Shown: positions 1 through 42,152, numbered from the stretch's first letter. The stretch is DNA of 64,000 nt from Escherichia coli (GCF_036507355.1 NZ_AP027877.1); one strand, 5' to 3'. The notes: generated by a model from the letters alone, not told the origin. A program made the numbers and translations.

Positions 1-2
1 TG

Positions 3-797: not shown

Positions 798-811
798 TTT
801 AGGAGAGAAAA

Positions 812-1513: not shown

Positions 1514-1518
1514 GGTGC

Positions 1519-2166: not shown

Positions 2167-2180
2167 CCAGGAGAACTATA

Positions 2181-3374: not shown

Positions 3375-3533
3375 GCACTTCTTCACCCAATCAGGCGCAC
3401 GGGCGGTCCCCTCGCCCCTTCGGGAGAGGGTTAGGGTGAGGGTAAAAATCTTGCCCGAATTAATCAGTAAGTCAGTTTGTCTGCAAACACAGGAGGCGCT
3501 AACATAGCGCCTCATTTTTTTGCGGGTGATGAT

Positions 3534-4484: not shown

Positions 4485-4871
4485 TAGTGGAATCGCAGTT
4501 TATCAGAGACAATGAATCGCTTATTCAGCTTCATCATCTTGTTGCGCTCCTTTCATGAGCTAAGCCACATATTGCCACTGGCGCAAGGAGCGCGCAGGGG
4601 GAGGACAATCGCCTCCTCCCCCTGCACCCCCGGGCTCTGGCGAACAAAATCGCCGCTGCGCGGTACCTTCAGCTTATCCCCTTCGGCTACCGGGTCGGGC
4701 GCGAGGAAACGTCCTTGTAAGACGCGCCCTCAGCCCACATCCATGTGGGCTGCCCCGGCCTTCGGGGAACGCTTCAGCGATTTTGACGCCACCAACACCG
4801 GAGCTGTTTGCAAATCAAGTACACAAAATATCTAGTTCCTGACCTGACAACTTATATGTCATATCTGATTT

Positions 4872-4955
4872 TTAAAATATCATCTTAAATACGCCAGTCA
4901 CCACCAGTAGCCCAATCAGGAAAATAATCAATACAGCCCAGAGTATAATTTTCAT
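4872..4955 (-). CDS. yohP: 27-aa small inner-membrane protein YohP
   Basis: Hand translation of minus strand gives MKIILWAVLIIFLIGLLVVTGVFKMIF; single transmembrane helix; too short for the ORF track. Confidence 0.7.
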   Translation of the reverse strand: MKIILWAVLIIFLIGLLVVTGVFKMIF

Positions 4956-5178
4956 TGGCGTTCCTTTATTTGTGAGTGCTGAATAAGTATAGGAAAAAAC
5001 GAAGCCCTTTGCCGTTATCCATAAACGATTAAGATAAATCGGAAGATATCATTCACTTAGTGTATATTTTTCTGGATATGTCGTTTTATTGCTACTGATG
5101 TATTGCCACGCGAAACTAAAAAATATATCGCAACACACGGTAATCTCCGCGCACCTTTTCTTACCTGATTATTCCCCC

Positions 5179-6615: not shown

Positions 6616-6667
6616 TGATATGCGCCTTCTATACTTAACGTTTATTCAGCGTTAAGTGGAGAACTCG

Positions 6668-7429
6668 ATGGCACAGGTTGCGATAATTACCGCCTCCGAT
6701 TCGGGGATCGGCAAAGAGTGCGCATTATTACTGGCGCAGCAGGGGTTTGATATTGGCATTACCTGGCACTCTGATGAAGAAGGGGCAAAAGACACCGCGC
6801 GTGAGGTGGTTAGCCACGGCGTACGTGCGGAGATCGTGCAACTGGATCTCGGCAATCTGCCAGAAGGTGCGCAGGCGCTGGAGAAACTCATTCAACGGCT
6901 GGGGCGTATTGATGTGCTGGTGAATAATGCGGGCGCAATGACCAAAGCGCCGTTTCTTGATATGGCTTTCGATGAGTGGCGCAAGATTTTTACCGTTGAT
7001 GTCGATGGTGCATTTTTATGTTCGCAAATTGCTGCCCGCCAGATGGTGAAACAAGGGCAGGGTGGTCGCATCATCAACATTACGTCGGTACATGAACATA
7101 CGCCGCTGCCGGATGCCAGCGCCTACACAGCCGCTAAACATGCGCTCGGCGGGTTAACCAAAGCAATGGCGCTGGAGTTGGTCAGGCATAAGATTTTGGT
7201 GAACGCAGTCGCACCTGGGGCGATCGCTACGCCAATGAACGGCATGGATGATAGCGACGTGAAGCCCGACGCGGAGCCTTCGATTCCTCTGCGGCGTTTT
7301 GGCGCAACGCATGAGATTGCCAGCCTGGTGGCGTGGCTTTGTTCGGAGGGTGCAAATTACACCACCGGGCAGTCGTTGATAGTGGATGGCGGCTTTATGT
7401 TGGCGAATCCGCAGTTCAACCCAGAATAG
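6668..7429 (+). CDS. yohF: short-chain dehydrogenase/reductase
   Basis: N-terminus MAQVAIITASDSGIGKE (Rossmann TGxxxGIG) and 253-aa length. Confidence 0.85.
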   Translation: MAQVAIITASDSGIGKECALLLAQQGFDIGITWHSDEEGAKDTAREVVSHGVRAEIVQLDLGNLPEGAQALEKLIQRLGRIDVLVNNAGAMTKAPFLDMAFDEWRKIFTVDVDGAFLCSQIAARQMVKQGQGGRIINITSVHEHTPLPDASAYTAAKHALGGLTKAMALELVRHKILVNAVAPGAIATPMNGMDDSDVKPDAEPSIPLRRFGATHEIASLVAWLCSEGANYTTGQSLIVDGGFMLANPQFNPE

Positions 7430-7461
7430 CGCAGTGAGGTGCGTAGTTATTTCAATGGGTT

Positions 7462-7536
7462 AGGCCAGATAAGACACGCCAGCGTCGCATCAGGCATGGA
7501 ACACCCGGCGCCGGATGTGGCGTGAATGCTTATCTG
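7462..7536. repeat. REP/BIME palindromic elements (two copies)
   Basis: GCCAGATAAGACACGCCAGCGTCGCATCAGGC and GCCGGATGTGGCGTGAATGCTTATCTG match the REP consensus style, sitting between convergent yohF and yohD. Confidence 0.55.
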
Positions 7537-7547
7537 TGGCAACTGCT

Positions 7548-8126
7548 TTACGCCTGATTATCCGGCTTTTTCTTCCCGCGTCGTTTCAGCCACCAGCGCA
7601 CGCCTACCACCAGAACCACGACCAGAATCAACCAGACCCAGTGCTTCAAATGCTGGTCGAGATTGTGCAACCACGGCGCAATCACCTGACCACCAGCGTA
7701 ACCGATAGTGGTAAAAATCAACGCCCAGGCAAATGCGCCGAGAATATTCAGCGGCAGAAAGATTTTCGGCGGCAGCTGGCTGGCACCAATCAGCGTCGGG
7801 CCAATCACCCGAAAGCCATACATAAAACGCGTACCAATGACAAACAGATACGGATGGCGTTGGATCAGTTTCTGCGCCCGCTCAATTTTATCCTGATGTT
7901 TCGAGAAACGGCGTAACAGCTTGCCGCCAAACCGCCGCCCGCACAGATAAAGCACCTGGTCGCCAATCATGCCGCCAAGCGCTACAGAAAGTACCACCAG
8001 CGGGAACTTTAATAGCCCCTGATGTGCCGCAACGCCTCCCAGCAAAGTCACGGTTTCACCTTCCGCCAGGCTACCGATCACCAGCGCGGCATAACCATAT
8101 TGTGAGATGAGTGTATTGAGATCCAT
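7548..8126 (-). CDS. yohD: DedA-family inner-membrane protein
   Basis: N-terminus MDLNTLISQYGYAALVIGSLAEGE, 192 aa. Confidence 0.85.
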   Translation of the reverse strand: MDLNTLISQYGYAALVIGSLAEGETVTLLGGVAAHQGLLKFPLVVLSVALGGMIGDQVLYLCGRRFGGKLLRRFSKHQDKIERAQKLIQRHPYLFVIGTRFMYGFRVIGPTLIGASQLPPKIFLPLNILGAFAWALIFTTIGYAGGQVIAPWLHNLDQHLKHWVWLILVVVLVVGVRWWLKRRGKKKPDNQA

Positions 8127-8295
8127 AGGCCAGTCTGTCTCCCTTTGGTTGCCTGTAAGCATACACCCTGTAAATCATTCACGCTGAAAAAGGACATACA
8201 TAAGACGGTGCAAATCACATGAGCGAACAAAAAATAATCACAAGCTGACTTATACTTGAACTGTCAGGTTCATGAACTCACAACAAGGGGGCGGT

Positions 8296-8883
8296 ATGAG
8301 CCATGTCTGGGGACTGTTTTCCCATCCCGATCGTGAAATGCAGGTGATTAATCGCGAAAACGAAACGATTTCTCACCATTACACCCACCACGTTTTGCTG
8401 ATGGCGGCGATTCCGGTGATTTGCGCCTTCATTGGCACTACACAGATTGGCTGGAATTTTGGCGATGGCACTATCCTGAAGTTATCCTGGTTTACCGGAC
8501 TGGCGCTGGCTGTCCTGTTTTATGGCGTTATGCTCGCTGGGGTCGCGGTGATGGGGCGGGTCATCTGGTGGATGGCGCGTAATTATCCGCAGCGTCCGTC
8601 ACTTGCGCACTGCATGGTCTTCGCGGGCTACGTTGCAACTCCGCTGTTTTTAAGCGGTCTGGTGGCGCTTTATCCGCTGGTCTGGTTGTGTGCGCTGGTC
8701 GGCACGGTGGCGCTGTTTTACACCGGCTACCTGCTTTATCTCGGTATTCCGAGCTTCCTGAATATCAACAAAGAGGAAGGCCTTAGCTTCTCCAGTTCGA
8801 CGCTGGCGATTGGCGTGCTGGTACTGGAAGTGCTGCTCGCCCTAACCGTTATACTATGGGGCTACGGTTATCGTTTGTTCTAG
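8296..8883 (+). CDS. yohC: Yip1-family inner-membrane protein
   Basis: N-terminus MSHVWGLFSHP, 195 aa, multiple hydrophobic segments. Confidence 0.8.
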   Translation: MSHVWGLFSHPDREMQVINRENETISHHYTHHVLLMAAIPVICAFIGTTQIGWNFGDGTILKLSWFTGLALAVLFYGVMLAGVAVMGRVIWWMARNYPQRPSLAHCMVFAGYVATPLFLSGLVALYPLVWLCALVGTVALFYTGYLLYLGIPSFLNINKEEGLSFSSSTLAIGVLVLEVLLALTVILWGYGYRLF

Positions 8884-9056
8884 AAAGTTCTTTGACGTTG
8901 CATTGCTGGCGTAAATGTCAGCAATGCAGCATTTCCTCACGATTCTCCTTTGACGATCGCACTTTTTGCTCGTTATGATGGCGTCGCTAGCCTCAGTAAA
9001 TCCTTACTCCGGCGGTGCGCAACCCGTGCGCGTGAACCACTATCTGAATGCTCATC

Positions 9057-9989
9057 ATGCCGAAATTTCGAGTTTCTTTATTTAGCCTGGCCCTGATGCT
9101 GGCTGTGCCTTTGGCACCGCAGGCCGTTGCGAAAACGGCAGCCGCTACCACCGCTTCACAACCGGAAATTGCCTCCGGTAGCGCGATGATTGTTGATCTG
9201 AATACCAACAAAGTGATCTATTCGAACCACCCGGATCTGGTGCGTCCGATTGCGTCTATCAGCAAATTAATGACCGCGATGGTTGTGCTGGATGCACGAC
9301 TGCCGCTGGATGAAAAACTAAAAGTGGATATCAGCCAGACGCCGGAGATGAAAGGGGTCTATTCGCGCGTACGACTGAACAGCGAAATCAGCCGTAAAGA
9401 TATGCTGTTGCTGGCGTTGATGTCTTCAGAAAACCGCGCGGCGGCAAGCCTTGCGCACCATTATCCCGGTGGTTACAAAGCCTTTATTAAGGCGATGAAT
9501 GCGAAAGCGAAATCGCTCGGAATGAACAACACGCGCTTTGTTGAACCGACCGGATTGTCGGTGCATAACGTTTCAACCGCCCGTGACTTAACCAAACTGC
9601 TCATTGCCAGCAAACAATATCCGTTGATCGGGCAGTTAAGTACTACCCGGGAAGATATGGCAACCTTCTCTAACCCGACGTATACGCTGCCGTTCCGCAA
9701 TACTAATCATCTGGTGTATCGCGATAACTGGAATATTCAGTTAACCAAAACCGGCTTTACCAATGCGGCGGGCCATTGTCTGGTGATGCGTACGGTTATC
9801 AATAATAAACCGGTGGCGCTGGTAGTGATGGATGCGTTTGGCAAATATACCCATTTTGCCGATGCCAGCCGCCTGCGTACCTGGATTGAAACCGGTAAAG
9901 TGATGCCTGTTCCGGCAGCAGCGTTGAGCTATAAAAAACAAAAAGCCGCCCAAATGGCGGCGGCGGGGCAGACGGCACAGAACGATTAA
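9057..9989 (+). CDS. pbpG: D-alanyl-D-alanine endopeptidase (PBP7)
   Basis: N-terminus [25 protein letters not shown] (signal peptide); SxxK active-site motif SISKLMT; 310 aa. Confidence 0.9.
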
Positions 9990-9996
9990 GTGAATT

Positions 9997-10029
9997 ACGG
10001 ATGGCGATACTCTGCCATCCGTCATTTTT
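9997..10029. terminator. bidirectional intrinsic terminator between convergent pbpG and dld
   Basis: Perfect hairpin ACGGATGGC-GATACTC-TGCCATCCGT followed by TTTTT. Confidence 0.6.
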
Positions 10030-11743
10030 ACTCCACTTCCTGCCAGTTTTTCCGCTTACTGGTTTTACCGATCCCCGGATTCATACTGTTGGTCGGATCG
10101 TTCTCGCGATAAAACTTCTGCAACGTCTCCGGTGCTTTATACAAATGACCGACGTTATGTTCGGCAGGATATTGCGCGCCACGCTGCTGCAGCAGTTCCA
10201 GCATCTGTTCTTTCAACGCATGCACATCCACGCCTTTTTTAACGATGTAATCCTGATGGAAGACATAGCACATAAAATGGCCGTAATAGAGCTTGTGCAC
10301 CAGCTGGCTGTCGATCTCCGGCGGTAAATGCTCATACCACTCGGTGTCGTTACGCCGCAGAGCGATATCCAGCGCCAGAATGTCTTCGACTTCATCGGAA
10401 TGCACCGCCTGATAACGAATTGCTGCGCCCGCAGCGGCGAAACGGTGTAAAAACGCTTTGCTGCCTTCCTCCGGCGTACAGACAAAGAAATCGCCTTCGG
10501 CCTGTTTGAAATAATCCACCAGCCACGATTTGGCTTCGCCCACGCCATCGCCCGCCATTTTTAACAGCAGATGATGCTCGTATTTATCGCGCCAGTTTTT
10601 CATGCGCGGCGGTAAATGGCTGGGGAACAGGTGACCGAATTTTTGCATCGCACGGTCAGTAAAATGCGGACGGAAGAATTTCACTTTCTCCAGCATCGCA
10701 TCGGTGCGTCCCTTGAGATTAAAGAAGAACGGCATCTTGTCGGTGCCTAACTTATCAATCATCAGGAAGGTGTCTTTGCCGTATTTTTCCGCAATATCGT
10801 AGATATCCCGGTGCATATATTCCCCGGCAACCGGCAGATTTTCGAAGTTAGCCAGAATATGACGGCGGATTTCGGTCAGCACTTCCGGCTGGTTGGTGCC
10901 GATATAAAACACCTGCTGATTTTTTTCCGCTTCGAAGGTATCAAGACGTACTGCAAAGACGGCCAGCTTCCCGGCGCAACCAGAAGATTCAAATAACCGA
11001 TCCGGATCGGCGTTATAACGTGCGGGCGTGTCGGCTTCAATATCACGAACGCGGTGGACATAGTCATAATCGTGGGCGTGACGACCATCGTGACGCACAT
11101 CGTCATCTTTGATGCGATCGTCATCCAGCTTGCTAAGGATCTGCTCCGGCGTTTCGCCCAGATCAATCCCGAGATGGTTCACCAGCGTCAGCTTGCCATC
11201 TTCATTTATACGCGCGAATAACGACATTTCGGTATACGCCGGGCCACGTTGCACCAGCGAGCCGCCGGAGTTGTTACAAATACCGCCGATGACCGATGCG
11301 CCAATGCACGATGAACCAATCACCGAGTGCGGTTCGCGTCCCAGCGGTTTGAGGGCTTTTTCCAGCGAATAAAGCGTGGTGCCCGGATAGGCCAGCACCT
11401 GTTCGCCCTTGCCGAGAACGTGCAGCTTGTCGAGACGCAGGGTGCTGATGATCACGATATCGCGATCATAGTCGTTACCGTTTGGCGTCGATCCTTCGGT
11501 CAGGCCTGTATTGGCAGCCTGCATCAGAATAATTTTGTCGGCGGTGACGCAGGCTTTCAGCACCCGCCACAATTCCAGTAGTGAGCCAGGGAAAACGACA
11601 GCCAGCGCGTCGCCCTGACCAGAACGGAAGCCCTTGCGATAGCGGGCCGTTTTTGCGGGATCGGTGAGCAGGTGTGAATGACCGACCAGACGGGCAAGTT
11701 CATTCAAAAAGGCTTTATTATCAGTTGTTGTCATGGAAGACAT
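10028..11743 (-). CDS. dld: FAD-dependent D-lactate dehydrogenase
   Basis: N-terminus MSSMTTTDNKAFLNEL, 571 aa. Confidence 0.9.
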   Translation of the reverse strand: MSSMTTTDNKAFLNELARLVGHSHLLTDPAKTARYRKGFRSGQGDALAVVFPGSLLELWRVLKACVTADKIILMQAANTGLTEGSTPNGNDYDRDIVIISTLRLDKLHVLGKGEQVLAYPGTTLYSLEKALKPLGREPHSVIGSSCIGASVIGGICNNSGGSLVQRGPAYTEMSLFARINEDGKLTLVNHLGIDLGETPEQILSKLDDDRIKDDDVRHDGRHAHDYDYVHRVRDIEADTPARYNADPDRLFESSGCAGKLAVFAVRLDTFEAEKNQQVFYIGTNQPEVLTEIRRHILANFENLPVAGEYMHRDIYDIAEKYGKDTFLMIDKLGTDKMPFFFNLKGRTDAMLEKVKFFRPHFTDRAMQKFGHLFPSHLPPRMKNWRDKYEHHLLLKMAGDGVGEAKSWLVDYFKQAEGDFFVCTPEEGSKAFLHRFAAAGAAIRYQAVHSDEVEDILALDIALRRNDTEWYEHLPPEIDSQLVHKLYYGHFMCYVFHQDYIVKKGVDVHALKEQMLELLQQRGAQYPAEHNVGHLYKAPETLQKFYRENDPTNSMNPGIGKTSKRKNWQEVE

Positions 11744-11938
11744 TTTCCACTCCTTGTGGTGGCGAAAAAATATCACAAACTAGAATAGCGCCTTGTATGA
11801 CAATTCAGCGAGTGAATATTTTGAAAATTCAGACAATAAACTGAGCATTCTTTTTCTCTCTCCATCATGCTTATGGCAAACTACGGTTTTTGCACCATTT
11901 TCGCTGCCACGTCGGGCAACAAAGGAAGAAAAATCCAT

Positions 11939-14236
11939 ATGAAATGGCTATGTTCAGTAGGAATCGCGGTGAGTCTGGCCCTGCAGCCAGCACTGGCGGA
12001 TGATTTATTCGGTAACCATCCATTAACGCCTGAAGCGCGGGATGCGTTCGTCACCGAACTGCTTAAGAAAATGACAGTTGATGAGAAAATTGGTCAGCTG
12101 CGCTTAATCAGCGTCGGCCCGGATAACCCGAAAGAGGCGATCCGCGAGATGATCAAAGACGGTCAGGTTGGGGCGATTTTCAACACCGTAACCCGTCAGG
12201 ATATCCGCGCCATGCAAGATCAGGTGATGGAATTAAGCCGCCTGAAAATTCCTCTTTTCTTTGCTTACGACGTGCTGCACGGTCAGCGCACGGTGTTCCC
12301 GATTAGCCTCGGTCTGGCCTCGTCTTTTAACCTCGATGCAGTGAAAACGGTCGGACGTGTCTCTGCTTATGAAGCGGCAGATGATGGCCTGAATATGACC
12401 TGGGCACCGATGGTCGATGTCTCGCGCGATCCGCGCTGGGGACGTGCTTCCGAAGGTTTTGGCGAAGATACGTATCTCACCTCAATAATGGGTAAAACCA
12501 TGGTGGAAGCGATGCAGGGAAAAAGCCCGGCAGATCGCTACTCGGTGATGACCAGCGTCAAACACTTTGCCGCATACGGTGCGGTAGAAGGCGGTAAAGA
12601 GTACAACACCGTCGATATGAGTCCGCAGCGCCTGTTTAATGATTATATGCCGCCGTACAAAGCGGGGCTGGACGCAGGCAGCGGCGCGGTGATGGTGGCG
12701 CTGAACTCGCTGAACGGCACGCCAGCCACCTCCGATTCCTGGCTGCTGAAAGATGTTCTGCGCGATCAGTGGGGTTTTAAAGGCATCACCGTTTCCGATC
12801 ACGGTGCAATCAAAGAACTGATTAAACATGGCACGGCGGCAGACCCGGAAGATGCGGTGCGCGTGGCGCTGAAATCCGGAATCAACATGAGCATGAGCGA
12901 CGAGTACTACTCGAAGTATCTGCCTGGGTTGATCAAATCCGGCAAAGTGACGATGGCAGAGCTGGACGATGCTGCCCGCCATGTACTGAACGTTAAATAT
13001 GATATGGGGTTGTTTAACGACCCATACAGCCATTTGGGGCCGAAAGAGTCTGACCCGGTGGATACCAATGCCGAAAGCCGCCTGCACCGTAAAGAAGCGC
13101 GTGAAGTGGCGCGCGAAAGCCTGGTGTTGCTGAAAAACCGTCTCGAAACGTTACCGCTGAAAAAATCCGCAACCATTGCGGTGGTTGGCCCGCTGGCAGA
13201 CAGCAAGCGTGACGTGATGGGAAGCTGGTCGGCGGCAGGTGTTGCCGATCAATCCGTGACCGTGCTGACCGGGATTAAAAATGCCGTCGGTGAAAACGGT
13301 AAAGTGCTGTATGCCAAAGGGGCGAACGTTACCAGTGACAAAGGCATTATCGATTTCCTGAATCAGTATGAAGAAGCGGTCAAAGTCGATCCGCGTTCGC
13401 CGCAAGAGATGATTGATGAAGCGGTGCAGACGGCGAAACAATCTGATGTGGTGGTGGCTGTAGTCGGTGAAGCACAGGGGATGGCGCACGAGGCCTCCAG
13501 CCGTACCGATATTACTATTCCGCAAAGTCAACGTGACTTGATTGCGGCGCTGAAAGCCACCGGTAAACCGCTGGTGCTGGTGCTGATGAACGGGCGTCCG
13601 CTGGCGCTGGTGAAAGAAGATCAGCAGGCTGATGCGATTCTGGAAACCTGGTTTGCGGGGACTGAAGGCGGTAATGCAATTGCCGATGTATTGTTTGGCG
13701 ATTACAACCCGTCCGGCAAGCTGCCGATGTCCTTCCCGCGTTCTGTCGGGCAGATCCCGGTGTACTACAGCCATCTGAACACCGGTCGTCCGTATAATGC
13801 CGACAAGCCGAACAAATACACTTCGCGTTATTTTGATGAAGCTAACGGGGCGCTTTATCCGTTCGGCTATGGTCTGAGCTATACCACTTTCACCGTCTCT
13901 GATGTGAAACTTTCTGCGCCGACCATGAAGCGTGACGGCAAAGTGACGGCCAGCGTGCAGGTGACGAACACCGGTAAACGCGAAGGGGCCACGGTAGTGC
14001 AGATGTACTTGCAGGATGTGACGGCTTCCATGAGCCGTCCAGTGAAGCAGCTGAAAGGCTTTGAGAAAATCACCCTGAAGCCGGGCGAAACTCAGACCGT
14101 CAGCTTCCCGATTGATATCGAGGCGCTGAAGTTCTGGAATCAACAGATGAAATATGACGCCGAGCCTGGCAAGTTCAATGTCTTTATCGGCACTGATTCC
14201 GCACGCGTTAAGAAAGGCGAGTTTGAGTTGCTGTAA
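11939..14236 (+). CDS. bglX: periplasmic beta-glucosidase (GH3)
   Basis: N-terminus MKWLCSVGIAVSLALQPALA (signal peptide), 765 aa. Confidence 0.9.
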   Translation: MKWLCSVGIAVSLALQPALADDLFGNHPLTPEARDAFVTELLKKMTVDEKIGQLRLISVGPDNPKEAIREMIKDGQVGAIFNTVTRQDIRAMQDQVMELSRLKIPLFFAYDVLHGQRTVFPISLGLASSFNLDAVKTVGRVSAYEAADDGLNMTWAPMVDVSRDPRWGRASEGFGEDTYLTSIMGKTMVEAMQGKSPADRYSVMTSVKHFAAYGAVEGGKEYNTVDMSPQRLFNDYMPPYKAGLDAGSGAVMVALNSLNGTPATSDSWLLKDVLRDQWGFKGITVSDHGAIKELIKHGTAADPEDAVRVALKSGINMSMSDEYYSKYLPGLIKSGKVTMAELDDAARHVLNVKYDMGLFNDPYSHLGPKESDPVDTNAESRLHRKEAREVARESLVLLKNRLETLPLKKSATIAVVGPLADSKRDVMGSWSAAGVADQSVTVLTGIKNAVGENGKVLYAKGANVTSDKGIIDFLNQYEEAVKVDPRSPQEMIDEAVQTAKQSDVVVAVVGEAQGMAHEASSRTDITIPQSQRDLIAALKATGKPLVLVLMNGRPLALVKEDQQADAILETWFAGTEGGNAIADVLFGDYNPSGKLPMSFPRSVGQIPVYYSHLNTGRPYNADKPNKYTSRYFDEANGALYPFGYGLSYTTFTVSDVKLSAPTMKRDGKVTASVQVTNTGKREGATVVQMYLQDVTASMSRPVKQLKGFEKITLKPGETQTVSFPIDIEALKFWNQQMKYDAEPGKFNVFIGTDSARVKKGEFELL

Positions 14237-30383: not shown

Positions 30384-33300
30384 TTAATGGAAAATGACGT
30401 CAGGTGCGCTTAACGCCTCACTCAAATCAAACACATCAAGTTCGGCAAAAGTGACGGATTTATTGTCACGGTACACTCGAAGAGAACGGAAGCTCATTAA
30501 CGCTTTGCTATCAACATTGTAGTGGTTAAAACCGGGTGAAAACTTAAGGACCAGCCGGTACTCGCCCAGGTCATAGACAAATGCGTCCTCATAGCCTGAC
30601 TCCCAGCCTTTGTATCGCATTCCCATAAGTTGCCCAACGGTAGCGGATTTACCTTCCCAGCGAGTCAGGCTGTTACTGGTTGACTCGTCAGGTGTGAGCA
30701 GCACCGTGCGGCGCGACAACTGGCGAAAAGGCGGCATAATTTCGTAATCGGCAAAAAGCTGTGCAAATTCACTGCGCATTTCTGCTGTCATTTCTAACGG
30801 GTGGGCAATGCCAATCAGAGCGTCCGCAGGCAGGTCAATTGGCTCATCTTGCGCATTGCAGAACTCCCCCTCTGCGGCCACACGAAAGGCGTTGAGTAAA
30901 CAACGCGGTTCATTTGCCGGATAAACCCCCCATATTAATCGCTGGGTAACCAGACGGGTAAAGGGATGATTAACAAACAGAGAATGAAAATCTGCCAGCG
31001 ACCAGCGTCGGGTGGTACGTAGGGCAGCTTCAAGACGCGGGAGCAGGTTTTTGCTCACCTGAGTAGCATCTTTTTTTAGCCCTTTTAGTCGGGCCAGTGC
31101 CTCGGGCGCTTTCAGTTGATCGTCATCGGCGCGCAACCGGGGAACGCTTTTCTGGTGAACGTTTTGCTGATCAAAGATAACCGGGTTGAGGTTTTCATCG
31201 AAGCGAACGGTAAACTGCCGGGGACCAAAATCAAAACTCAACGCCTGCGGATCATCAAGGCCCAGGGTTGGGACTAATCTGTCCGCTAGCTCTTCCTGGC
31301 TTAGCCCGCGATTTTCTGCGACCACCTGAAGAAATTCCGCCGCGTTATCACGTAAGGGGCGGGATTTAGCCCGTTGCGATATATGATGCAGCTGTATCAG
31401 CGCCATATCATTATTCATCAGGGTAAGGATGTTCAGGCCGCTGACAGCACGGGCAGATTTGCCTTCTTGTGGCCAGGCGAGGATCTGTGTCGTCAGATCC
31501 CGTGCCGTGCTTTCGTCACCAAAGAGACTTAACGCCAGAAATGCCCAGTTGTCTTTTGCGGGGGCACCAGCTTGTTGCCACGCAGTGAAGAGATCCCAGG
31601 CAAAAGCTGCCAGCGTTTGTGGCTGGCAGAACGTTTTCAGTTGTTCCAGCCCGCTATAAAAACGTCCCCCCTGGGTAAAGCGCAGCATTTCGCCGATAAT
31701 TTCCAGAGCGTCATCGGTAACAGTTTGATTATTAGTGATAAGGCGCGGCCTGGACCACATTTGCGGATGCCAGAAATCAGGGGCTTTTGGAATGCGTGCC
31801 GGGTAAATCTCTATTGGACTCTGTTTAAGTAATTGTTCCAGGGCAGGCCATAGATCTGTACGCTGCCAACGATTGGCTACAGTTTGTAGCAATTCGCCAT
31901 GCCCATGTTCGTAAAGTAAACGCAGGGCAAGTAATGCATCTTCGCTTTTATCGCTAGATTTGGTGAAGACAAGAGGGATAAGTGCAGTAGCCGTATGTTC
32001 CGGCCATTGTAAAATCCACTGGCGAGCCAGATTACGCTGGCCCGCAAAACGGTGCCAGACGCGGGCAACGGGCAGGGCCAGTTCTGTTGCGCCGAAATTT
32101 AAAATTAACGGAAATGTTTCTTTTGGACGATGTGAAAAAGCCAACAGCAGACCTGGTAGCGCATCCAATCCGAGGATACTGAGAAAATAGTCCTCACCCG
32201 CGAACAGATGTTTTTTCTCATTGATACGCAGCCAGAAGGTCAAAGCCATCTCACGCGGCAACTGTGCCAATAAATACAGGTTCCAGACACTCTTTTCCGG
32301 ACGATAACGTGAGTAGTTGTCATTTTCCCATATGTTAATTAACGCTTCTATGTGACCGCTGCGGAGCGCCTGTTCTGCTAATTGTGCTTCCGGGGAGTTC
32401 CAGCCATTCAGGATCTCTTCAACCCGCCCCTGGTAGTAATGCCACTGAACAATGAGTGAATTGCGTGCAGCATCCAGTTTTCCAGGGAGTATATAATTCA
32501 AAAACAGCCATACATCATCCCCAAAACCCAGTTCCTGTAATACAACTCGCCCACTTTTTTGTTCCATGCGTTGCGCAAGAGATTCCGTGCTGAAATAACG
32601 GGCAGACTCAGTGGCGGCAAGCCTCTCTCGTTCGCCTGGTTGCCAGTAAACTTGCGGAGTTAATTCGAGCCGTGCCAAATCAAGACGTGGAGCTGTCATT
32701 TTTTTCTTACTACGCCACGGTGGTGAAACGAGGATTTCAGGCAGATTGCTGTTATCGGTGCCATCAATAACCGGTTTTGGCAGTGCCGATAAATAACTCT
32801 TCAGCACTGCCCTGGCTTGAGTACTTAACCACGGTATCACTTCTGCTGCCAGTTGTGGCTGCGATGCCATCAGCGTTTGTAACAGCGTACGCCAGTATTC
32901 ATCTCGAGCTTTTTGCTGTGCAGGCAGCTTTTTGTCTTCGATGATTGGATAACCAGGGCGTGCAGGTGGTTCTGTTAACGCCAGCAGTTCTGCCAGTGCG
33001 GCGAGCGTCGCATGGGGGAAGTTTTTATGGTATTTAGCTACACGTTGCAGGCTGGGTTTGTTTTTATCAGCAACTAACAGCAAGGTGCGGATGACTTGCG
33101 GATGGTTAATTTGTACCAGCAGACTGCCGCAATCTTCTTTATGAGCATACATTGCCAGGCGCGGAACGGCTGCCAGTCCTTGTTCGCGCAAAAGGGAGGC
33201 GCAGGCCGCGTAGCCGAAGCGGTTTTCTTGTGACATGTAGCTGGCTTCGCGATCGCTAAATACGTCCAGGCCCCAGTATCGTTCGAGTTTTTTTACCGCC

Positions 33301-34016
33301 GTATTATCAGTAGCAACGACCTTTAACCACTCCTTTGAATGGAGACTTGACCGGGAGCTTTCAAGACTGGCGAGTTCATTGGCTATTTCAGGTTTTTCCG
33401 GGAGGATCAGCGCAATAAAAGGACGGCGAATTTTGGGTATTCCTGGCAGTGCGGCAATGAGTTTATCGGCACAACGCTGCCAGCAACTTTCCTCTGCCAG
33501 CGACAGATGCTTACGCAAACGGAGATCGAAATCGTTATAGGTCGCGGAGCCATAACCGTAGCCATAGTCCTCGTCCTGATACTGCAAAGTGACGACCAGT
33601 GAGTCACTCTCATAACGCCGCGCAATGCACTGACGCGATATCACTACATCCGTCGCATATTCCAGCCCCTCTTGTTGCACGATTTCATCAAGTAACTGCT
33701 GGCTGTCATTTTGCGCGATACAGATCAGAGCCGCCATGGTAAGGGCTGGGATTGACGGTTTATGCTCGCCAGTCAAATTGATTGCCTGCTGGATGGCGGA
33801 CTGCCACTCCAGTGAGCATTTATCATAATTCCAGGTGATATTTTCCTTCTGGCCTGCTTGTTGTAGTAATTCATCTCCCAATGTCTGGATGAGACTTCCA
33901 GTGATAACAGGCACCGGTTCGCCCGGCCATTTGCGATGACTGAGTGGTGTTTTGCCTTTTTTATATTTCAGTTCCAGTTGGGCGTTATCCGCCAGCCACG
34001 GTAATTCCTTGTCCAT
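30384..34016 (-). CDS. yehI: giant DUF4132 protein
   Basis: Intact 1210-aa ORF; paralogous to the molR segments further along. Confidence 0.85.
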   Translation of the reverse strand: MDKELPWLADNAQLELKYKKGKTPLSHRKWPGEPVPVITGSLIQTLGDELLQQAGQKENITWNYDKCSLEWQSAIQQAINLTGEHKPSIPALTMAALICIAQNDSQQLLDEIVQQEGLEYATDVVISRQCIARRYESDSLVVTLQYQDEDYGYGYGSATYNDFDLRLRKHLSLAEESCWQRCADKLIAALPGIPKIRRPFIALILPEKPEIANELASLESSRSSLHSKEWLKVVATDNTAVKKLERYWGLDVFSDREASYMSQENRFGYAACASLLREQGLAAVPRLAMYAHKEDCGSLLVQINHPQVIRTLLLVADKNKPSLQRVAKYHKNFPHATLAALAELLALTEPPARPGYPIIEDKKLPAQQKARDEYWRTLLQTLMASQPQLAAEVIPWLSTQARAVLKSYLSALPKPVIDGTDNSNLPEILVSPPWRSKKKMTAPRLDLARLELTPQVYWQPGERERLAATESARYFSTESLAQRMEQKSGRVVLQELGFGDDVWLFLNYILPGKLDAARNSLIVQWHYYQGRVEEILNGWNSPEAQLAEQALRSGHIEALINIWENDNYSRYRPEKSVWNLYLLAQLPREMALTFWLRINEKKHLFAGEDYFLSILGLDALPGLLLAFSHRPKETFPLILNFGATELALPVARVWHRFAGQRNLARQWILQWPEHTATALIPLVFTKSSDKSEDALLALRLLYEHGHGELLQTVANRWQRTDLWPALEQLLKQSPIEIYPARIPKAPDFWHPQMWSRPRLITNNQTVTDDALEIIGEMLRFTQGGRFYSGLEQLKTFCQPQTLAAFAWDLFTAWQQAGAPAKDNWAFLALSLFGDESTARDLTTQILAWPQEGKSARAVSGLNILTLMNNDMALIQLHHISQRAKSRPLRDNAAEFLQVVAENRGLSQEELADRLVPTLGLDDPQALSFDFGPRQFTVRFDENLNPVIFDQQNVHQKSVPRLRADDDQLKAPEALARLKGLKKDATQVSKNLLPRLEAALRTTRRWSLADFHSLFVNHPFTRLVTQRLIWGVYPANEPRCLLNAFRVAAEGEFCNAQDEPIDLPADALIGIAHPLEMTAEMRSEFAQLFADYEIMPPFRQLSRRTVLLTPDESTSNSLTRWEGKSATVGQLMGMRYKGWESGYEDAFVYDLGEYRLVLKFSPGFNHYNVDSKALMSFRSLRVYRDNKSVTFAELDVFDLSEALSAPDVIFH

Positions 34017-34025
34017 GCTCTTTCC

Positions 34026-36226
34026 TTATTCAAACAGGGCTTCAATATCGTTAATTAGCTCGCTGGCGGTGATGGCATCGAGTACGGAGAACTGCGCTTC
34101 CTGTGTTGAATTACTCCCCCAGCCATAGCTTTCTGCGTTGCCTTCCCATAGCCACAGCTTGCTTAAGATTTGCTCGGCACTCAGTTCGGCTGGCGACATG
34201 CCTACCGCAAAACCTTCATCGATTTCCATGATTAACGACCAGCGGCCCAGAGGTTTGATCATCCAGCCGATCCAGCCTCCATCCTGCGGGGTGCCCTTTA
34301 TCCAGCCTTTATTCGCCAGCCCCATGACCCGACCGCTCGGGTATTTTCTGCCTGCCCAGCGGGTCAGTTCGCTGGCGTTGCGCTCGGCTTCTGTCAGGGC
34401 GTAACTGTTACGGTCAAGCTGACGGAACGGTGGTAGCAGTTCATAGTCGGCAAAAAGCTGACCAAAGGCGGCAGCATCCGTCGGTGATATTTCCAGAACG
34501 TGAGGAATGCCAACAGAGATATCGCCTTCCGGCAGGGTGAAAAGATCATCGTCAGCGGTGCTGTAGCTGTTATCTTCCGCCACGCGGAAGCACGTCAGTA
34601 GCTGGTTTTCGGTGCTATAAACGCCCCAAATCAGACGGCGGGTTAAGTGGCGTACCAGTGGATGTTCAACCAGGAAGAGCTGAAAGTTTTCTGGCGACCA
34701 GCGGCGACGCAGGCACATGGCGGATTCCAACCTTGCTACCTGCTGGGCGGCGACGGTACGCGCATCTTTTTTCAGCAGTTTGTAGCGGTTAACAGCATCG
34801 TTCGCCTGTGATTCATCATCGCTTTTGTTTGGTTTGGGCAGGTCTTTCAGACGGCTGCCAGAAACATCACGCACAAACGGTTTTAAGGTTTCATCAAAGC
34901 TGACGGTGAACTGGCGTGAGCCGAAATCCAGCAGCAACGAACCGTTATCATCCAGACCGAGATCCGGTGCTAACCGATCTTCAAGCTCTGCCACCGTGAG
35001 TTCGCGGCTCTCGGCAATGTCGGCAATTTTTTCTTTTGCCCGCTCCTGTAATGCTTTGAATTTCAGTTTCTGGGCGATGCCGTTAAGCTGCATCAGGGCG
35101 ATATCACTACCGATAGCAGCGAGAATATCCAACCCAACGGTGGCGCGTTTATGCTGGGATTCACCAGGCCAGGCGCGGATTAATGGCGTCAGTTTGCGGG
35201 CGGTGTCGTCGTTACCGAGAACGCCTAACGCAGCGAACGCCCAACTCTCTTTCGACGGCGCGCCAGCGGTCTGCCAGGCGGTAAACAGATCCCAGGCAAA
35301 TCCCGCCAGTGAGTCGGCGGTACAGGCATCTTTCACCTGCAATAATCCCGGATACAGAGCCTCTTCCTGAGGGAAGCGGAGCATTTCACCGAGGTGGAGG
35401 AGGGCGCTATCTGGCAGTACCTTGCTGCTATTTTTGAGTTTCGGGCGAGTCCATAATGGAGGTTGATAAAACAACGGTAAAGGGGGGATTTTCGCCGGGT
35501 ATTTACCCACAGGACTGTTGTCGTTATTTTTATTTTGAGTTTCCCAGGGCGGCGAGACTAGTACCATTGGTAGAATTTCTGAGTTTGCAAAATCTTCATT
35601 GCGACTATTCAGCAATTGCTGACATTGTTGCAATAAATTTGCCGCTTGCGACGATAATCCGATGACTAATTTTTCGACCAATAAAGAATTTGCATTAAGT
35701 AATGAAACCAGCAATGTATGTTTGCGTTTATCATCTTTTTTTACCAATGCTTCGGCTAATGCCACTATCGTTGCAGAAGGAAAATTTTCGGCACTTTTTA
35801 TTAGTCGTTCATAACAGCGTTTATTAGTATCGGCGGCTTCGATGAGTGCCGTAATGGCCAACGGATGATTAATACATTTCAGTACGTCACCGCAATTATC
35901 TTCTTCAGCATAGGGAGCCAGGCGAGCCAGTGCCGCTATACCTTGCTCCCGTAATACCGTAGCTGACCAACTGGCACCATAGGTGTTAAATACATCAATG
36001 TATTGATAGTTCTCCAGTATTTCGAGCGTGAATGGATCTGTCGCTACCAGTTTCAACATTTCAAGTTGTGGAACATCTACGACCTGGTGTAAACGATGTA
36101 CGATCTCATGGGCCACTTCGGGTATTTCTGGCATTAAAATGGCAATTAACGGTTGGCGATAGAGTGATATATCTGGTAACGCAACGAGTAATTTTGCAAT
36201 GCAATTTTGCCATACTTCTTCTTCTG
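34026..36226 (-). pseudogene. molR: molR-type DUF4132 paralogue, C-terminal segment; reading frame runs unbroken into the IS1 end
   Basis: 702-aa ORF plus 30 in-frame codons reaching the IS1 boundary; strong similarity to yehI residues from about 200 onward (e.g. LREQGIAALARLAPYAEEDNCG versus LREQGLAAVPRLAMYAHKEDCG). Confidence 0.65.
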
Positions 36227-36241
36227 GGTAATGACTCCAAC

Positions 36242-36745
36242 TTATTGATAGTGTTTTATGTTCAGATAATGCCCGATGACTTTGTCATGCAGCTCCACCG
36301 ATTTTGAGAACGACAGCGACTTCCGTCCCAGCCGTGCCAGGTGCTGCCTCAGATTCAGGTTATGCCGCTCAATTCGCTGCGTATATCGCTTGCTGATTAC
36401 GTGCAGCTTTCCCTTCAGGCGGGATTCATACAGCGGCCAGCCATCCGTCATCCATATCACCACGTCAAAGGGTGACAGCAGGCTCATAAGACGCCCCAGC
36501 GTCGCCATCGTGCGTTCACCGAATACGTGCGCAACAACCGTCTTCCGGAGCCTGTCATACGCGTAAAACAGCCAGCGCTGGCGCGATTTAGCCCCGACAT
36601 AGCCCCACTGTTCGTCCATTTCCGCGCAGACGATGACGTCACTGCCCGGCTGTATGCGCGAGGTTACCGACTGCGGCCTGAGTTTTTTAAGTGACGTAAA
36701 ATCGTGTTGAGGCCAACGCCCATAATGCGGGCTGTTGCCCGGCAT
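36242..36745 (-). CDS. insB: IS1 InsB (made as an InsAB' frameshift fusion)
   Basis: 167-aa ORF overlapping insA in the -1 frame. Confidence 0.85.
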
Positions 36746-36939
36746 CCAACGCCATTCATGGCCATATCAATGATTTTCTGGTGCGTACCGGGTTGAGAAG
36801 CGGTGTAAGTGAACTGCAGTTGCCATGTTTTACGGCAGTGAGAGCAGAGATAGCGCTGATGTCCGGCGGTGCTTTTGCCGTTACGCACCACCCCGTCAGT
36901 AGCTGAACAGGAGGGACAGCTGATAGAAACAGAAGCCAC
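36664..36939 (-). CDS. insA: IS1 InsA
   Basis: 91-aa [30 protein letters not shown]..., zinc-finger/HTH protein of IS1. Confidence 0.9.
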
Positions 36940-36994
36940 TGGAGCACCTCAAAAACACCATCATACACTAAATCAGTAAGTTGGCAGCATCACC

Positions 36995-37500
36995 AACTCT
37001 GTAATTCCTGGTGTGATATCCGTGACGGCAGGAATGGGAAGTACCGGTAAATCAAATACGGGTATGACATTCTTTTTCTTATTTATTACCCACGGTGGAG
37101 CGACAAGCAGCTCCGGCAACATATCCACAGTGGCATATTCACATTCTTCAGCTACTGGCAGCGGACGACATTCAGATAAGATGCCTGCCGCCTTAGCATT
37201 AACCCAGGGAATGACCTCGCATACTAACTCTGGCGTGGCGGTAATCAGTTTGACAAGCGCTTTACGCCACTCATTATTTTCATGTATTGCCAGCAAAGTA
37301 GCATAAGCGGCAATAGCCGCAGCGGGATGTTTTTGGCAGGCTTTGCTTAAGTATTCCAGGTGCTTTTTCTTGCCATTTACACCGAGGATCAGAATTTGAA
37401 TCGCATCCGGGTGATTCGTTTTCCATAGCCATTTGACAAGATTTTCAGTCTCGCTGATGCGTTCGAAGAGATAAGTGGGATTGTCAGAATGGTCTTCCGT
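36995..37500 (-). pseudogene. molR: molR middle segment between IS1 and IS600
   Basis: Open frame encoding ...NLVKWLWKTNHPDAIQILILGVNGKK...EVIPWVNAKAAG..., similar to yehI residues about 290-450; stop codon immediately upstream in frame. Confidence 0.55.
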
Positions 37501-37678
37501 AAACTAAAGAAGTATCCGGCTTACACCGCGCACCCCAGATACTGCTCTGAGTACAGTGGAAAAATACGATTTCCCACCGTTGTATCGTGATTTTCGTAAT
37601 TTTCGCGCTTATCTGGCAATGTTGTTGGCAAATAATGAGGTGTACTGGCAATAGCGGACACTACCATTTGTTCTTTTT

Positions 37679-38497
37679 TTAAGCAGCCATCTGATGATAT
37701 TTTTCCCTGAAGGCTGCCGGGGAGATATTCCCCAGACGAGAGTGACGACGCTGACGATTGTAGAAAATCTCAATGTATTCCCGTATTACTGAGATGGCTT
37801 CATCCCGGTTATTAAAACGATAGTGGCTCAGGCTCTCATTTTTCAGCGTTCCCCAGAAGCTTTCCATCGGAGCGTTGTCGTAACAGTTACCTTTACGCGA
37901 CATTGATGTTTTCAGACCAAACTGCTCCTGTATGACCCGGTAATCGTATGCGCAGTACTGTGAACCTCGATCAGAGTGGTGGATTAGCCCGGCAGGTGGG
38001 CGCTGGCTCCTGAGCGCCATAAACAGGGCTTTACCTGTCAGCTCTTTTGTCATGCGCTCTCCCATGGCGTAGCCGACAATTTCGCACGTATAAACATCTT
38101 TGATGCCAGCGAGGTACAACCATCCCTCCTGTGTGGCAACATACGTCAGGTCCGCCACCCAGACCTGATTTGGTGCTGTAGGAGCGAACGTCTGGTTCAG
38201 CAGATTTGGCGCAACTGGCAGATTGTGGTTCGAGTTCGTAGTCGCTCTGAACTTGCGTTTCTGCTTACAGCGTAGCCTTAGCTCCTTACGAAGACGTGCC
38301 AGTCGGTCACGACCAACGATGATGCCATTCTCTGCCAGCTCCGTCTGGAGCCGCCGGGTTCCATATGTTTCGCGAGTGCGGATATGTGCCACCTTAATCT
38401 CCAGTTTTAGCCGCTCATCACTTTGTTTTCTGTCTGAGGGTTCATGCTGTACCCAGTTGTAATAACCGCTCCTGGATACACCAAATACCTGACACAT
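37679..38497 (-). CDS. IS3-family transposase OrfB (DDE catalytic domain)
   Basis: 272-aa ORF with integrase-like DDE region; presumably expressed via -1 frameshift fusion with OrfA. Confidence 0.85.
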   Translation of the reverse strand: MCQVFGVSRSGYYNWVQHEPSDRKQSDERLKLEIKVAHIRTRETYGTRRLQTELAENGIIVGRDRLARLRKELRLRCKQKRKFRATTNSNHNLPVAPNLLNQTFAPTAPNQVWVADLTYVATQEGWLYLAGIKDVYTCEIVGYAMGERMTKELTGKALFMALRSQRPPAGLIHHSDRGSQYCAYDYRVIQEQFGLKTSMSRKGNCYDNAPMESFWGTLKNESLSHYRFNNRDEAISVIREYIEIFYNRQRRHSRLGNISPAAFREKYHQMAA

Positions 38498-38532
38498 CGC
38501 TTCAATGGGAAATTGTTGTCGCCATTGTTCGA

Positions 38533-38832
38533 TTAACGCGTATTTTTCAGCGACTCCTGTGCAAAATACGTTGCTTTTTTTAATATATCTCGCTCAAGGC
38601 GAGCTTCATTTAACGCCTTACGCAGTTGCAGAATTTCAGATTCCAGTTCAGCCACCGTGCGGGAACCAGGAGTACCGAGCCCTTTTCTGGCGGCGGTAAC
38701 CCATTGTCCTAAAGTGCCTTCAGGAAGAGATAATCGGGAAGCGCCTTCACTGATCGAAAGTTGATTTTCAAGAACCGTTCTGACAGCTTCGGCTTTGAAC
38801 TCTTTAGAGTAACGTTGGGTTTTTCTGCTCAT
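38533..38832 (-). CDS. IS3-family transposase OrfA
   Basis: 99-aa HTH protein. Confidence 0.85.
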   Translation of the reverse strand: MSRKTQRYSKEFKAEAVRTVLENQLSISEGASRLSLPEGTLGQWVTAARKGLGTPGSRTVAELESEILQLRKALNEARLERDILKKATYFAQESLKNTR

Positions 38833-38896
38833 TATTAGCTCCTTCTGATGCCATTCTATTTCAGGAAGGAGTGTCCGTTAAACTCAGGCTACCTCA

Positions 38897-39847
38897 ATCA
38901 TCGGTTATCACCAGTCTTAACCAGGTCATCGCCGGGACGTTTTGGTCTGCATAGCGTAGAGCTATAGCATGGGCGATATCCGGGCGTTCAGGGAGCAGTA
39001 ACGCCGCAAAAGGTTGCCGTGCGGGGGATAGCGTCGGAATGGCGGTGAGTACTTTATCTACACAGCGTTGCCACTCATCTTCTGAAGCGAGTGAAAGATG
39101 ATGACATAGACGTTGATGCCAACTAGGTAGCGATTCTGCTTTGTGATTAGGTGGAATGATGGTGGTTACTGCGCCTTTTACTGGTTTATATTTGAGTTGA
39201 AGGGCAAAAAGGACGATTTCAACGGCGCTTTCCAGACCACAGCGAATGACTAAGTCATCGACCAGTTCATCTGCAGAGTAAGAGTTCCAAAAACTCCAGA
39301 GCAATGCTGCATCAGATTGCGCACTCCCTGTCTGTTGATTATCCAGAATTCGCCTTTGTAACTCAGCAAAAGCCTGCTGCCAGTTTTCAGGATAAGAGCG
39401 GTAATTGTTGTCGGGATCATATGCCCTGGTGTTATTCGCGATGCGTTGCCATATTTGACCATCTTTGTGCAGATAATTGATCTCTCTGGGGCGAGAACGA
39501 TGAGGAAAAGCAAATCGATTAATATCGCCAGTTATCGGAATGACTGCGTCATCAACCAGCCATGGGCGTTGGATTTTACTCTCAGGGGAAGATTCAACTT
39601 CAGGAGTGGCTTTGGTGATGGGGGGGATATGCACGTTTGCTGAAGCATTTTCTACATAGCCTTTTTTCGTTTTCTCTGCGATCAGCTTAAGCTTCGCTTT
39701 TTCCGCTGCTGCAACATCAGCAAAATTTTTTACCTGGCTTTGCCCTTGGGTACCAACTTTCCCCCAGCTGATATGCAACTCGTTTCCCTGCTGCTCCACC
39801 GCCCAGAATTTATGTGATTTTTCGTCCTGATAGATATAACTCTTCAT
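38897..39847 (-). pseudogene. molR: molR N-terminal segment (WGR-like domain plus DUF4132 start), truncated by the IS3-family element
   Basis: N-terminus MKSYIYQDEKSHKFWAVEQQGNELHISWGKVGTQGQ (WGR-like); aligns to the yehI N-terminus after about residue 90; frame ends in a stop supplied by the IS end. Confidence 0.7.
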
Positions 39848-39987: not shown

Positions 39988-42021
39988 TTATTTCACCTGA
40001 TGACCCGGTTTAGCACCGGCATCCGGGCTTAGCAGGAAGATATCTTTCCCGCCAGGACCGGCAGCCATCACCATGCCCTCAGAGATACCGAAGCGCATTT
40101 TACGTGGTGCCAGGTTAGCCACCATAATGGTGTGACGACCAATCAGTGCCTGCGGATCCGGGTAGGCAGAACGAATGCCAGAGAAGACATTGCGTTTTTC
40201 ACCGCCGAGATCCAGCGTCAGGCGCAGCAGTTTGTCAGAACCTTCAACAAACTCTGCGTTTTCAATAAGCGCCACGCGCAGGTCAACTTTAGCGAAGTCG
40301 TCAAAGGTGATGGTTTCCTGAATCGGATCATCTGCCAGTGGGCCAGTAACTGGCGCGGCAGCTGCTTTCACTTCTTCTTTAGACGCTTCCACCAGTGCTT
40401 CAACCTGCTTCATATCGATGCGGTTATACAGCGCTTTGAACGGATTCACTTTGTGGCCCAGCAGAGGTTGCTGGATACCATCCCAGGTCAGTTCTGTATT
40501 GAGGAATGCTTCTGCGCGCTCGGTCAGTTTCGGCAGTACCGGCTTCAGGTAAGTCATCAGCACGCGGAACAGGTTGATGCCCATTGAGCAAATCGCCTGC
40601 AGGTCAGCATCGCGGTCTTCCTGTTTTGCCACCACCCACGGAGCCTGTTCATCGACATAGCGGTTAGCCAGATCAGCCAGCGCCATGATTTCGCGCACTG
40701 CTTTACCAAATTCGCGGCTTTCCCACGCTTCACCAATCACTTCAGCGGCATCAGTGAAGGTTTTGTACAACTGCGGGTCAGCCAGTTCGCTTGCCAGCAC
40801 ACCGTCAAAACGCTTGTTGATAAAGCCCGCATTACGAGAGGCCAGGTTAACCACTTTGTTAACGATATCAGCATTCACGCGCTGAACGAAATCTTCCAGG
40901 TTGAGATCGATATCATCAATGCGCGAAGAGAGTTTCGCAGTGTAGTAGTAACGCAGGCTGTCGGCGTCAAAATGATTCAGCCAGGTGCTGGCTTTAATAA
41001 AGGTACCGCGAGACTTAGACATCTTCGCGCCGTTCACCGTCACATAGCCATGAACAAACAGGTTGGTCGGCTTGCGGAAGTTGCTGCCTTCCAGCATTGC
41101 TGGCCAGAACAGACTGTGGAAGTAAACAATATCTTTACCGATGAAGTGGTACAGCTCGGCGGTGGAGTCTTTCTTCCAGTATTCATCGAAGCTTACGCTG
41201 TCGCCGCGCTTGTCGCACAGATTCTTGAAAGAACCCATATAGCCAATCGGCGCATCTAGCCAGACGTAGAAATATTTACCCGGCGCGTTCGGAATTTCAA
41301 AACCGAAGTACGGCGCGTCGCGGGAGATATCCCACTGTTGCAGGCCAGATTCAAACCACTCCTGCATTTTATTTGCCACCTGCTCCTGCAACGCACCGCT
41401 GCGGGTCCATGCCTGCAACATTTCGCTGAAAGAGGGCAGATCAAAGAAGAAGTGTTCAGAATCACGCATTACCGGCGTAGCGCCAGAAACCACCGATTTC
41501 GGCTCGATCAATTCAGTCGGGCTGTAGGTCGCGCCGCAGACTTCGCAGTTATCGCCGTATTGATCCGGGGATTTACATTTCGGGCAGGTGCCTTTTACAA
41601 AACGGTCCGGCAGGAACATGCCTTTTTCCGGATCGTACAGCTGAGAGATGGTGCGGTTTTTAATAAAACCGTTTTCTTTCAGGCGAGAGTAGATAAGTTC
41701 TGACAACTGGCGGTTCTCTTCGCTGTGCGTCGAGTGATAGTTGTCATAGCTGATGTTAAAGCCTGCGAAATCAGTCTGATGCTCCTGACTCATTTCGCCA
41801 ATCATCTGCTCCGGGGTGATACCCAGCTGCTGAGCTTTCAGCATGATCGGTGTACCGTGGGCATCGTCGGCGCAGATGAAGTTGACCTCGTGGCCGCGCA
41901 TTCGCTGGTAACGGACCCAGACATCAGCCTGGATGTGCTCCAGCATATGGCCGAGGTGGATTGAGCCGTTAGCGTACGGCAGTGCGCACGTCACCAGAAT
42001 TTTCTTCGCGACTTGAGTCAT
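39988..42021 (-). CDS. metG: methionyl-tRNA synthetase
   Basis: N-terminus [25 protein letters not shown] (HIGH motif), KMSKS present, 677 aa. Confidence 0.95.
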
Positions 42022-42152
42022 AGTAGGCATTACTTCTTAATAGTGAAAAGGGGTTAGATAGTACCAAATGGGAAAATGTTAAGTAAGTACTTCTCTATAT
42101 TCTTCAGGTAAACTATCAGCTGATGGTTTATCTATACAAAAAAGGAGTCGGG

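Follow-up and report, generated by a model that had tools for sequence, protein, structure and literature searches.

Deletion of the DNA beside a resident element is a classical property of IS1, the adjacent deletions of the gal region being the textbook case, and it proceeds by intramolecular replicative transposition. Elements of this family measure ~768 bp, carry terminal inverted repeats of ~23 bp (GGTGATGCTGCCAACTTACTGAT / GGTAATGACTCCAACTTATTGAT) together with the insA and insB frames, and on simple insertion generate a 9-bp direct duplication of the target. Members of the IS3 family, as exemplified by IS911, are capable of one-ended or surrogate-end transposition, the reported events being insertions or deletions. 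The genes affected at the locus described here belong to the MolR/YehI group, whose proteins combine an N-terminal WGR domain with a C-terminal DUF4132 domain. IS copies that sit without target duplications at the centers of deletions have been ascribed either to adjacent deletion or to recombination between IS copies (PMC11708052), and Shigella and EIEC typically show expansion of IS1 and IS600 together with loss of genes (PMC7373316).

We analyzed a stretch of Escherichia coli DNA of 64,000 nucleotides (GCF_036507355.1, NZ_AP027877.1; referred to hereafter as the window) in which two insertion sequences lie among remnants of molR-like genes between metG and yehI. The best match to one of these remnants (the middle piece of gene1, 99.6%) came from E. 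coli A30, whose locus (L001) served as our reference for mapping and for breakpoints. Downstream of metG, A30 encodes gene1 (1268 aa), gene2 (1010 aa), and yehI (1210 aa), such that two tandem WGR/DUF4132 paralogues lie between metG and yehI; the same three-gene layout is present in FXCREC145 (where gene1 carries an unrelated simple IS1 insertion) and in L007 (GCA_905398635.1), a contig of which is 99.975% identical to the window across 15.8 kb and retains an intact gene2 with no IS1 in it. K-12 possesses a single gene at this position (yehF/yehH, historically molR) and has nothing of gene1 except its first ~200 bp. At the protein level, K-12 yehF/yehH share 68% and 96% identity with FXCREC145 gene2 and 88–97% with the C-terminal half of A30 gene2, vs at most 40% and 57% with gene1; by this measure of protein identity, the K-12 molR/yehH gene is orthologous to gene2. 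The metG–yehI region is highly polymorphic: one or two WGR/DUF4132 genes precede yehI (A30, K-12, FXCREC145), and the 5′ ~200 bp and the 3′ ends are conserved, but the middles have diverged beyond what blastn can align from one strain to another. Of 5426 complete E. coli genomes, 1642 (~30%) give a megablast match to the middle region of gene1, and several other E. coli lineages also have gene1 split into short ORFs (P0001–P0008). Pfam detects the WGR domain in the N-terminal piece of gene1 and DUF4132 in both the gene2 remnant and yehI. PADLOC returned no match for proteins of the gene1/gene2/yehI type, hence no link to a defense system, and NCBIfam gave nothing above cut-off for the same paralogues.

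Table 1. Features of the metG–yehI region and of the second IS1 copy, with their counterparts in E. coli A30 (L001).
Feature	Window coordinates	Strand	A30 counterpart	Remarks
Whole region	between metG (39988–42030) and yehI (30384–34016)	−		
Upstream colinear block	43500 to 38897		4302–8905	ends with gene1 codons 1–317 (39847–38897)
Gene1 N-terminal piece	38897–39847	−	7955–8905	molR-like WGR/DUF4132 paralogue adjoining metG; codons 1–317
IS600 target duplication, copy one	38897–38899	.		GAT on gene strand, abuts IRL
IS600 (IS3 family)	37636–38896	−	none	1261 bp; IRL at 38896, IRR at 37636
IS600 orfA	38832–38533	−		99 aa
IS600 orfB	38497–37679	−		
Inverted gene1 segment	37538–37635	+	8903–9000	98 bp, codons 317–349, orientation opposite to A30
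IS600 target duplication, copy two	37538–37540			GAT, far end of the inverted 98 bp
TGGGGTG	37531–37537	−	9001–9007	adjoins second inversion breakpoint
Gene1 middle piece	36995–37537	−	9001–9543	codons 350–529; 99.6% identity
IS1	36227–36994	−	none	768 bp, no target duplication, exactly at the 3,062-bp deletion junction
Gene2 remnant	34026–36226	−	from 12606 (window 36226 downward, then yehI)	from codon 278/279; codons 279–1010, open frame, DUF4132 (Pfam)
yehI	30384–34016	−		third paralogue, intact, 1210 aa
Second IS1	49568–50335	+		simple insertion, 9-bp duplication GCGAAGCCC, internal control

The structure of the locus can be read directly from its alignment to A30, with which all pieces of the window are colinear and against which the breakpoints are exact to the base (Table 1). 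The original prediction had held that the two elements split one molR into three pieces, and had proposed alignment to an intact relative as the means of locating the breakpoints; this alignment instead assigns the N-terminal and middle pieces to gene1 and the C-terminal piece to gene2, and on no single intact molR do the pieces lie contiguous and free of overlap. The N-terminal piece of gene1 differs from A30 at 41 of 951 nucleotides, and its ORF ends at a TGA supplied by the IS600 terminus. If IS600 is removed and the 98-bp segment re-inverted, gene1 forms a colinear frame across codons 1–529 whose sole stop is E360*, a nonsense change (GAG to TAG at 37504–37506, minus strand) within the middle piece. 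The gene2 remnant is 98.4% identical in amino acid sequence to residues 279–1010 of A30 gene2, and 30–61% identical to gene1. An exact-protein look-up of the 702-aa gene2 remnant gave no record, and the IS1–gene2 junction was thus not found in other assemblies.

The IS1 copy between the two paralogues is canonical in every respect save its flanks. Both ends can be read directly (GGTAATGACTCC… and …GGCAGCATCACC) and fit the family, as does the length; the copy is 98.5% identical to an annotated IS1A-family element, and its ORFs match the Pfam families Zn_ribbon_InsA, HTH_Tnp_IS1, and DDE_Tnp_IS1 (E-values down to 2e-78). The adjoining 9-mers, CTTCTTCTG (36218–36226) and AACTCTGTA (36995–37003), differ at most positions and form no repeat. 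A second IS1 in the window is 100% identical to the first and retains a perfect 9-bp duplication, which renders the absence of one at the first copy meaningful; the missing duplication bears on the history of that copy and not on its family membership. (The second copy occupies the rcnA–rcnB intergenic region, at about 2186754–2186762 of K-12.)

On A30, the bases abutting the two IS1 ends are 9543 (in gene1) and 12606 (in gene2), leaving 9544–12605 unaccounted for in the window—3,062 bp that comprise the 3′ part of gene1, the intergenic spacer, and codons 1–278 of gene2. L007 retains the equivalent of A30 9884–12605, i.e., the 5′ part of gene2 that is missing here plus part of the gene1 3′ end, making the loss a recent one, confined to the lineage of the window. 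The two paralogues are not joined at equivalent positions: the counterpart of gene1 residue 529 lies at about residue 528 of gene2, whereas the actual junction falls at gene2 residue 278, which excludes homologous recombination between paralogous sequence. Because the pieces flanking IS1 derive from different paralogues, their alignments to yehI overlap (residues 291–464 for the gene1 middle piece, 175–439 for the start of the gene2 remnant), and an IS1-bounded, out-of-register deletion of 3,062 bp accounts for this overlap and for the lack of a duplication alike. As judged from these alignments, IS1 marks an IS1-associated deletion that fused two paralogues. Much of what had been predicted is borne out, namely the naming of the elements as IS600-like and IS1, the lack of a 9-bp direct repeat around the latter, the overlap on yehI, and the view that IS1 did not arrive by simple insertion (its flanks being 3,062 bp apart on A30); of the suggestion that IS1 mediated recombination or rearrangement between paralogues, the rearrangement involving paralogues stands and the homologous recombination does not.

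The second element shares its orientation with gene1 and is 99.8% identical to an IS600 annotated on a Shigella sonnei plasmid (1264 bp), the sole difference being the loss of three bases (CAG) directly behind the A7G frameshift site (reference positions 327–329). This near-identity, the TG…CA termini, and the orfA/orfB arrangement with its A7G site place it in the family, and the ORFs match Pfam HTH_Tnp_1 and rve. The junction of gene1 codon 317 with IRL recurs in three other assemblies. A reference copy of IS600 carries a 3-bp target duplication, whereas the immediate flanks of the copy in the window, read on the gene strand, are unlike one another (GAT vs TTA). A30 has GATGAT at 8900–8905, and its bases 8903–8905 occur twice in the window, giving three GAT copies vs two; the third, inverted copy fits a target duplication that would later have been split by inversion of the neighboring 98 bp.

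This 98-bp segment of gene1 lies in an orientation opposite to that of both neighboring pieces (blastn), with a single mismatch to A30 over its length. Its breakpoints are exact, coinciding on one side with the IS600 terminus and on the other with the base beside TGGGGTG, a heptamer that matches the IS600 terminus TGAGGTG at six of seven positions and is the sole site within one mismatch of it, in that orientation, in the 3807 bp of A30 gene1. We take the placement of both breakpoints exactly at an IS600 terminus and at its look-alike to mean that the inversion depended on IS600, and the apparent splitting of the GAT duplication by the inversion to mean that the insertion came first. The 135 bp at 37501–37635, previously thought to be decayed molR with an in-frame stop, resolve into 37 bp that continue the gene1 middle piece (and contain the TAG) and the 98 bp of inverted gene1 with its one substitution; the stop is genuine, and the segment is not diffusely decayed. 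The inversion junction had no match in a collection holding one genome per species, neither the inverted segment nor the junctions of the window occurred among 5,426 complete E. coli genomes, and a homology search with the gene1 middle piece yielded truncated fragments from other lineages only, with no intermediates. The order IS600 right end, inverted 98 bp, middle piece, IS1 is nonetheless present as a contig in three other assemblies (two ENA metagenome assemblies and GCA_905398585.1), two of them exact and one 99.9% identical to the window; these are short-read contigs, which attest the junctions and cannot prove the 3 kb absent from the strains concerned.

Decay of the locus in relatives takes other forms too. 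Gene1 of L007 bears a different IS3-family element, inserted at A30 position 9884, and sample ERR3330519 has an internal piece of the same element next to the final ~90 bp of gene2 (window 34117); these observations (L007 1–842, L008 1–29) point to further, independent decay.

We propose, with a probability of roughly 0.85, that the locus descends from a three-paralogue ancestor by insertion of IS600, an IS600-dependent inversion, the E360* mutation, and an IS1-associated deletion. In the ancestor, gene1, gene2, and yehI would have stood in tandem downstream of metG and would have acquired these four lesions, listed here in no set order. Entry of IS600 into gene1 at codon 317 would have duplicated 3 bp (GAT), as is usual for the element, and the 98 bp that separate IRR from TGGGGTG would have flipped in place, parting the two GAT copies. 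Two routes to this flip can be envisaged. Either the transposase acted aberrantly on IRR together with a surrogate end, or a second IS600 was transiently present in inverted orientation; in the latter case, homologous recombination between the copies would have flipped the spacer, and slippage between TGAGGTG and TGGGGTG would then have removed the second copy (an inverted repeat of 1.26 kb with a 98-bp spacer should be unstable). The first route, in which the inversion would be the footprint of a non-canonical transposase reaction that paired IRR with a surrogate TGGGGTG and did not duplicate the element, we consider unlikely; to our knowledge, inversion of a spacer without duplication of the element is not among the described outcomes of copy-out–paste-in transposition. 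A GAG to TAG substitution would have produced E360*. Once IS1 had inserted in either gene1 or gene2, a deletion of 3,062 bp would have extended from one end of the element, taking with it one copy of the target duplication and joining gene1 codon ~529/530 to gene2 codon 278/279. For this last step, we infer that adjacent deletion by intramolecular replicative transposition is the most likely mechanism, because it requires fewer events.

Intermediates of such a history would be recognizable by predicted junctions: GGAGTCATTACC+TACAGAGTTAATCAG for IS1 with its duplication in gene1, TCACTAGCAGAAGAAG+GGTGATGCTGCC for IS1 with its duplication in gene2, and IS600 IRR+GATACTGCTCTG for IS600 with the 98 bp uninverted. 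No relative with a simple IS1 insertion at the gene1 or the gene2 site was found, and adjacent deletion is consequently not distinguishable from recombination between two IS1 copies. The latter would start from two insertions in the same orientation (gene1 9535–9543 and gene2 12606–12614), with homologous recombination leaving one hybrid IS1. We regard it as possible, if doubtful: it would lead to an identical end product, IS1 is a multi-copy element with two 100%-identical copies in the window alone, and this route is named beside adjacent deletion in the literature (PMC11708052), but it calls for two insertions within 3 kb and a recombination in place of one insertion and one intramolecular event, and gene2 of L007 contains no IS1. 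It further predicts a precursor with IS1 in gene2 at 12606 and the N-terminal part of the gene kept, and a look-up of this hypothetical product gave no record, which is weak evidence against it. The missing record also bears on an assembly artefact, in which the genome would really hold two IS1 copies and the intervening 3 kb would have collapsed. Such a collapse over identical repeats would yield the same duplication-less picture, but we judge it very improbable, given that the junction of the gene1 middle piece with the IS1 end recurs in three independent assemblies and that IS-bounded deletions are common in genomes of this kind (PMC7373316). An inversion between the two oppositely oriented IS1 copies of the window was also considered as the cause of the missing duplication and was rejected, because the pieces all retain the orientation that they have in A30 and the second copy is flanked by its own duplication.

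That IS1 simply inserted into one molR, with internal repeats of the protein creating the overlap and with the duplication since mutated away, has a negligible probability in our estimation. The proteins are indeed long, and the paralogues align with one another over most of their length; however, the flanks lie 3,062 bp apart and in two genes in three reference genomes, the piece to the left of IS1 matches gene2 at 98% and gene1 at only 30–61%, and the flanking 9-mers differ at most positions. Of the inversion, it may be asked whether IS600 was involved at all, the alternatives being that replication switched templates at short inverted repeats or that the inversion is an older polymorphism. 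Small inversions by replication template switching are known, and the segment is flanked by an inverted repeat matching at six of seven positions (CACCTCA…TGGGGTG). The CACCTCA arm, however, belongs to the IS600 terminus, so that IS600 had to be in place beforehand; the apparently split GAT duplication likewise places the insertion before the inversion, and in none of the 5,426 complete E. coli genomes searched is the segment inverted, leaving an IS600-independent origin improbable. A hairpin or template switch via the 8-bp inverted repeat ATTGCCAG/CTGGCAAT was rejected, the breakpoints lying at the IS terminus instead.

Elsewhere in the window, three further segments depart from K-12. Positions 1–3494 form a non-K-12 island beside dusC that encodes a cupin dioxygenase, an FAA-family hydrolase, a GST-like protein, and an FAD monooxygenase, and looks like a gentisate-type pathway for aromatic degradation. 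The yohP–dusC intergenic region contains a GC-rich segment of ~272 bp (4524–4795) in the orientation opposite to its K-12 counterpart, at 88.6% identity; it has no obvious inverted repeats at its flanks, includes a CCCACATGGATGTGGG hairpin, and matches the Rfam TwoAYGGAY RNA below threshold (25.9 bits vs a gathering score of 43). Between rcnR and thiM (51580–53854) lie ~2.3 kb that are missing from K-12, with ORFs of 104 and 115 aa that have no Pfam match and an 85-aa HTH_73 protein.

Two practical points follow for annotation of the region. The fragments should be named as remnants of two paralogues joined by an IS1 deletion rather than as three parts of molR, and K-12 should be used with caution as a reference for metG–yehI, where strains carry one or two WGR/DUF4132 genes with divergent middles. 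As a small case that arose in nature, the inversion could help in designing a test of whether an IS3-family transposase uses surrogate ends.

Set against known systems, the locus is an ordinary case of IS-driven decay, in which two dispensable tandem paralogues were inactivated and partly deleted. It resembles the IS1 adjacent deletions, and the duplication-less IS copies at deletion centers in the long-term evolution experiment (PMC11708052), in that an intact, duplication-less IS stands at the junction with the deletion running from its end, and in that the DNA on either side otherwise keeps the order seen in an undeleted relative; the window presents the end product alone, be it of one IS1 or two. 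The likeness to decay in Shigella and EIEC (PMC7373316) lies in the pairing of IS1 with IS600, in the interruption and partial deletion of non-essential genes, and in a state that varies between near-identical strains (L007 vs the window), and the IS content suggests that the window itself comes from Shigella or EIEC; our literature search did not find the gene1/gene2/yehI locus discussed together with Shigella or IS600. With the K-12 molR (yehF/yehH) pseudogene, the locus shares its position downstream of metG, the WGR and DUF4132 family, and inactivity, but K-12 has one gene, an orthologue of gene2 inactivated by frameshift, where the window reflects a two-gene ancestor with IS-mediated lesions. 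Only the 98-bp inversion goes slightly past routine: we know of no description of in-place spacer inversion without IS duplication as a surrogate-end product. As with surrogate ends of the IS911 type, a terminus-like chromosomal sequence (six of seven positions) lies exactly at the second breakpoint.
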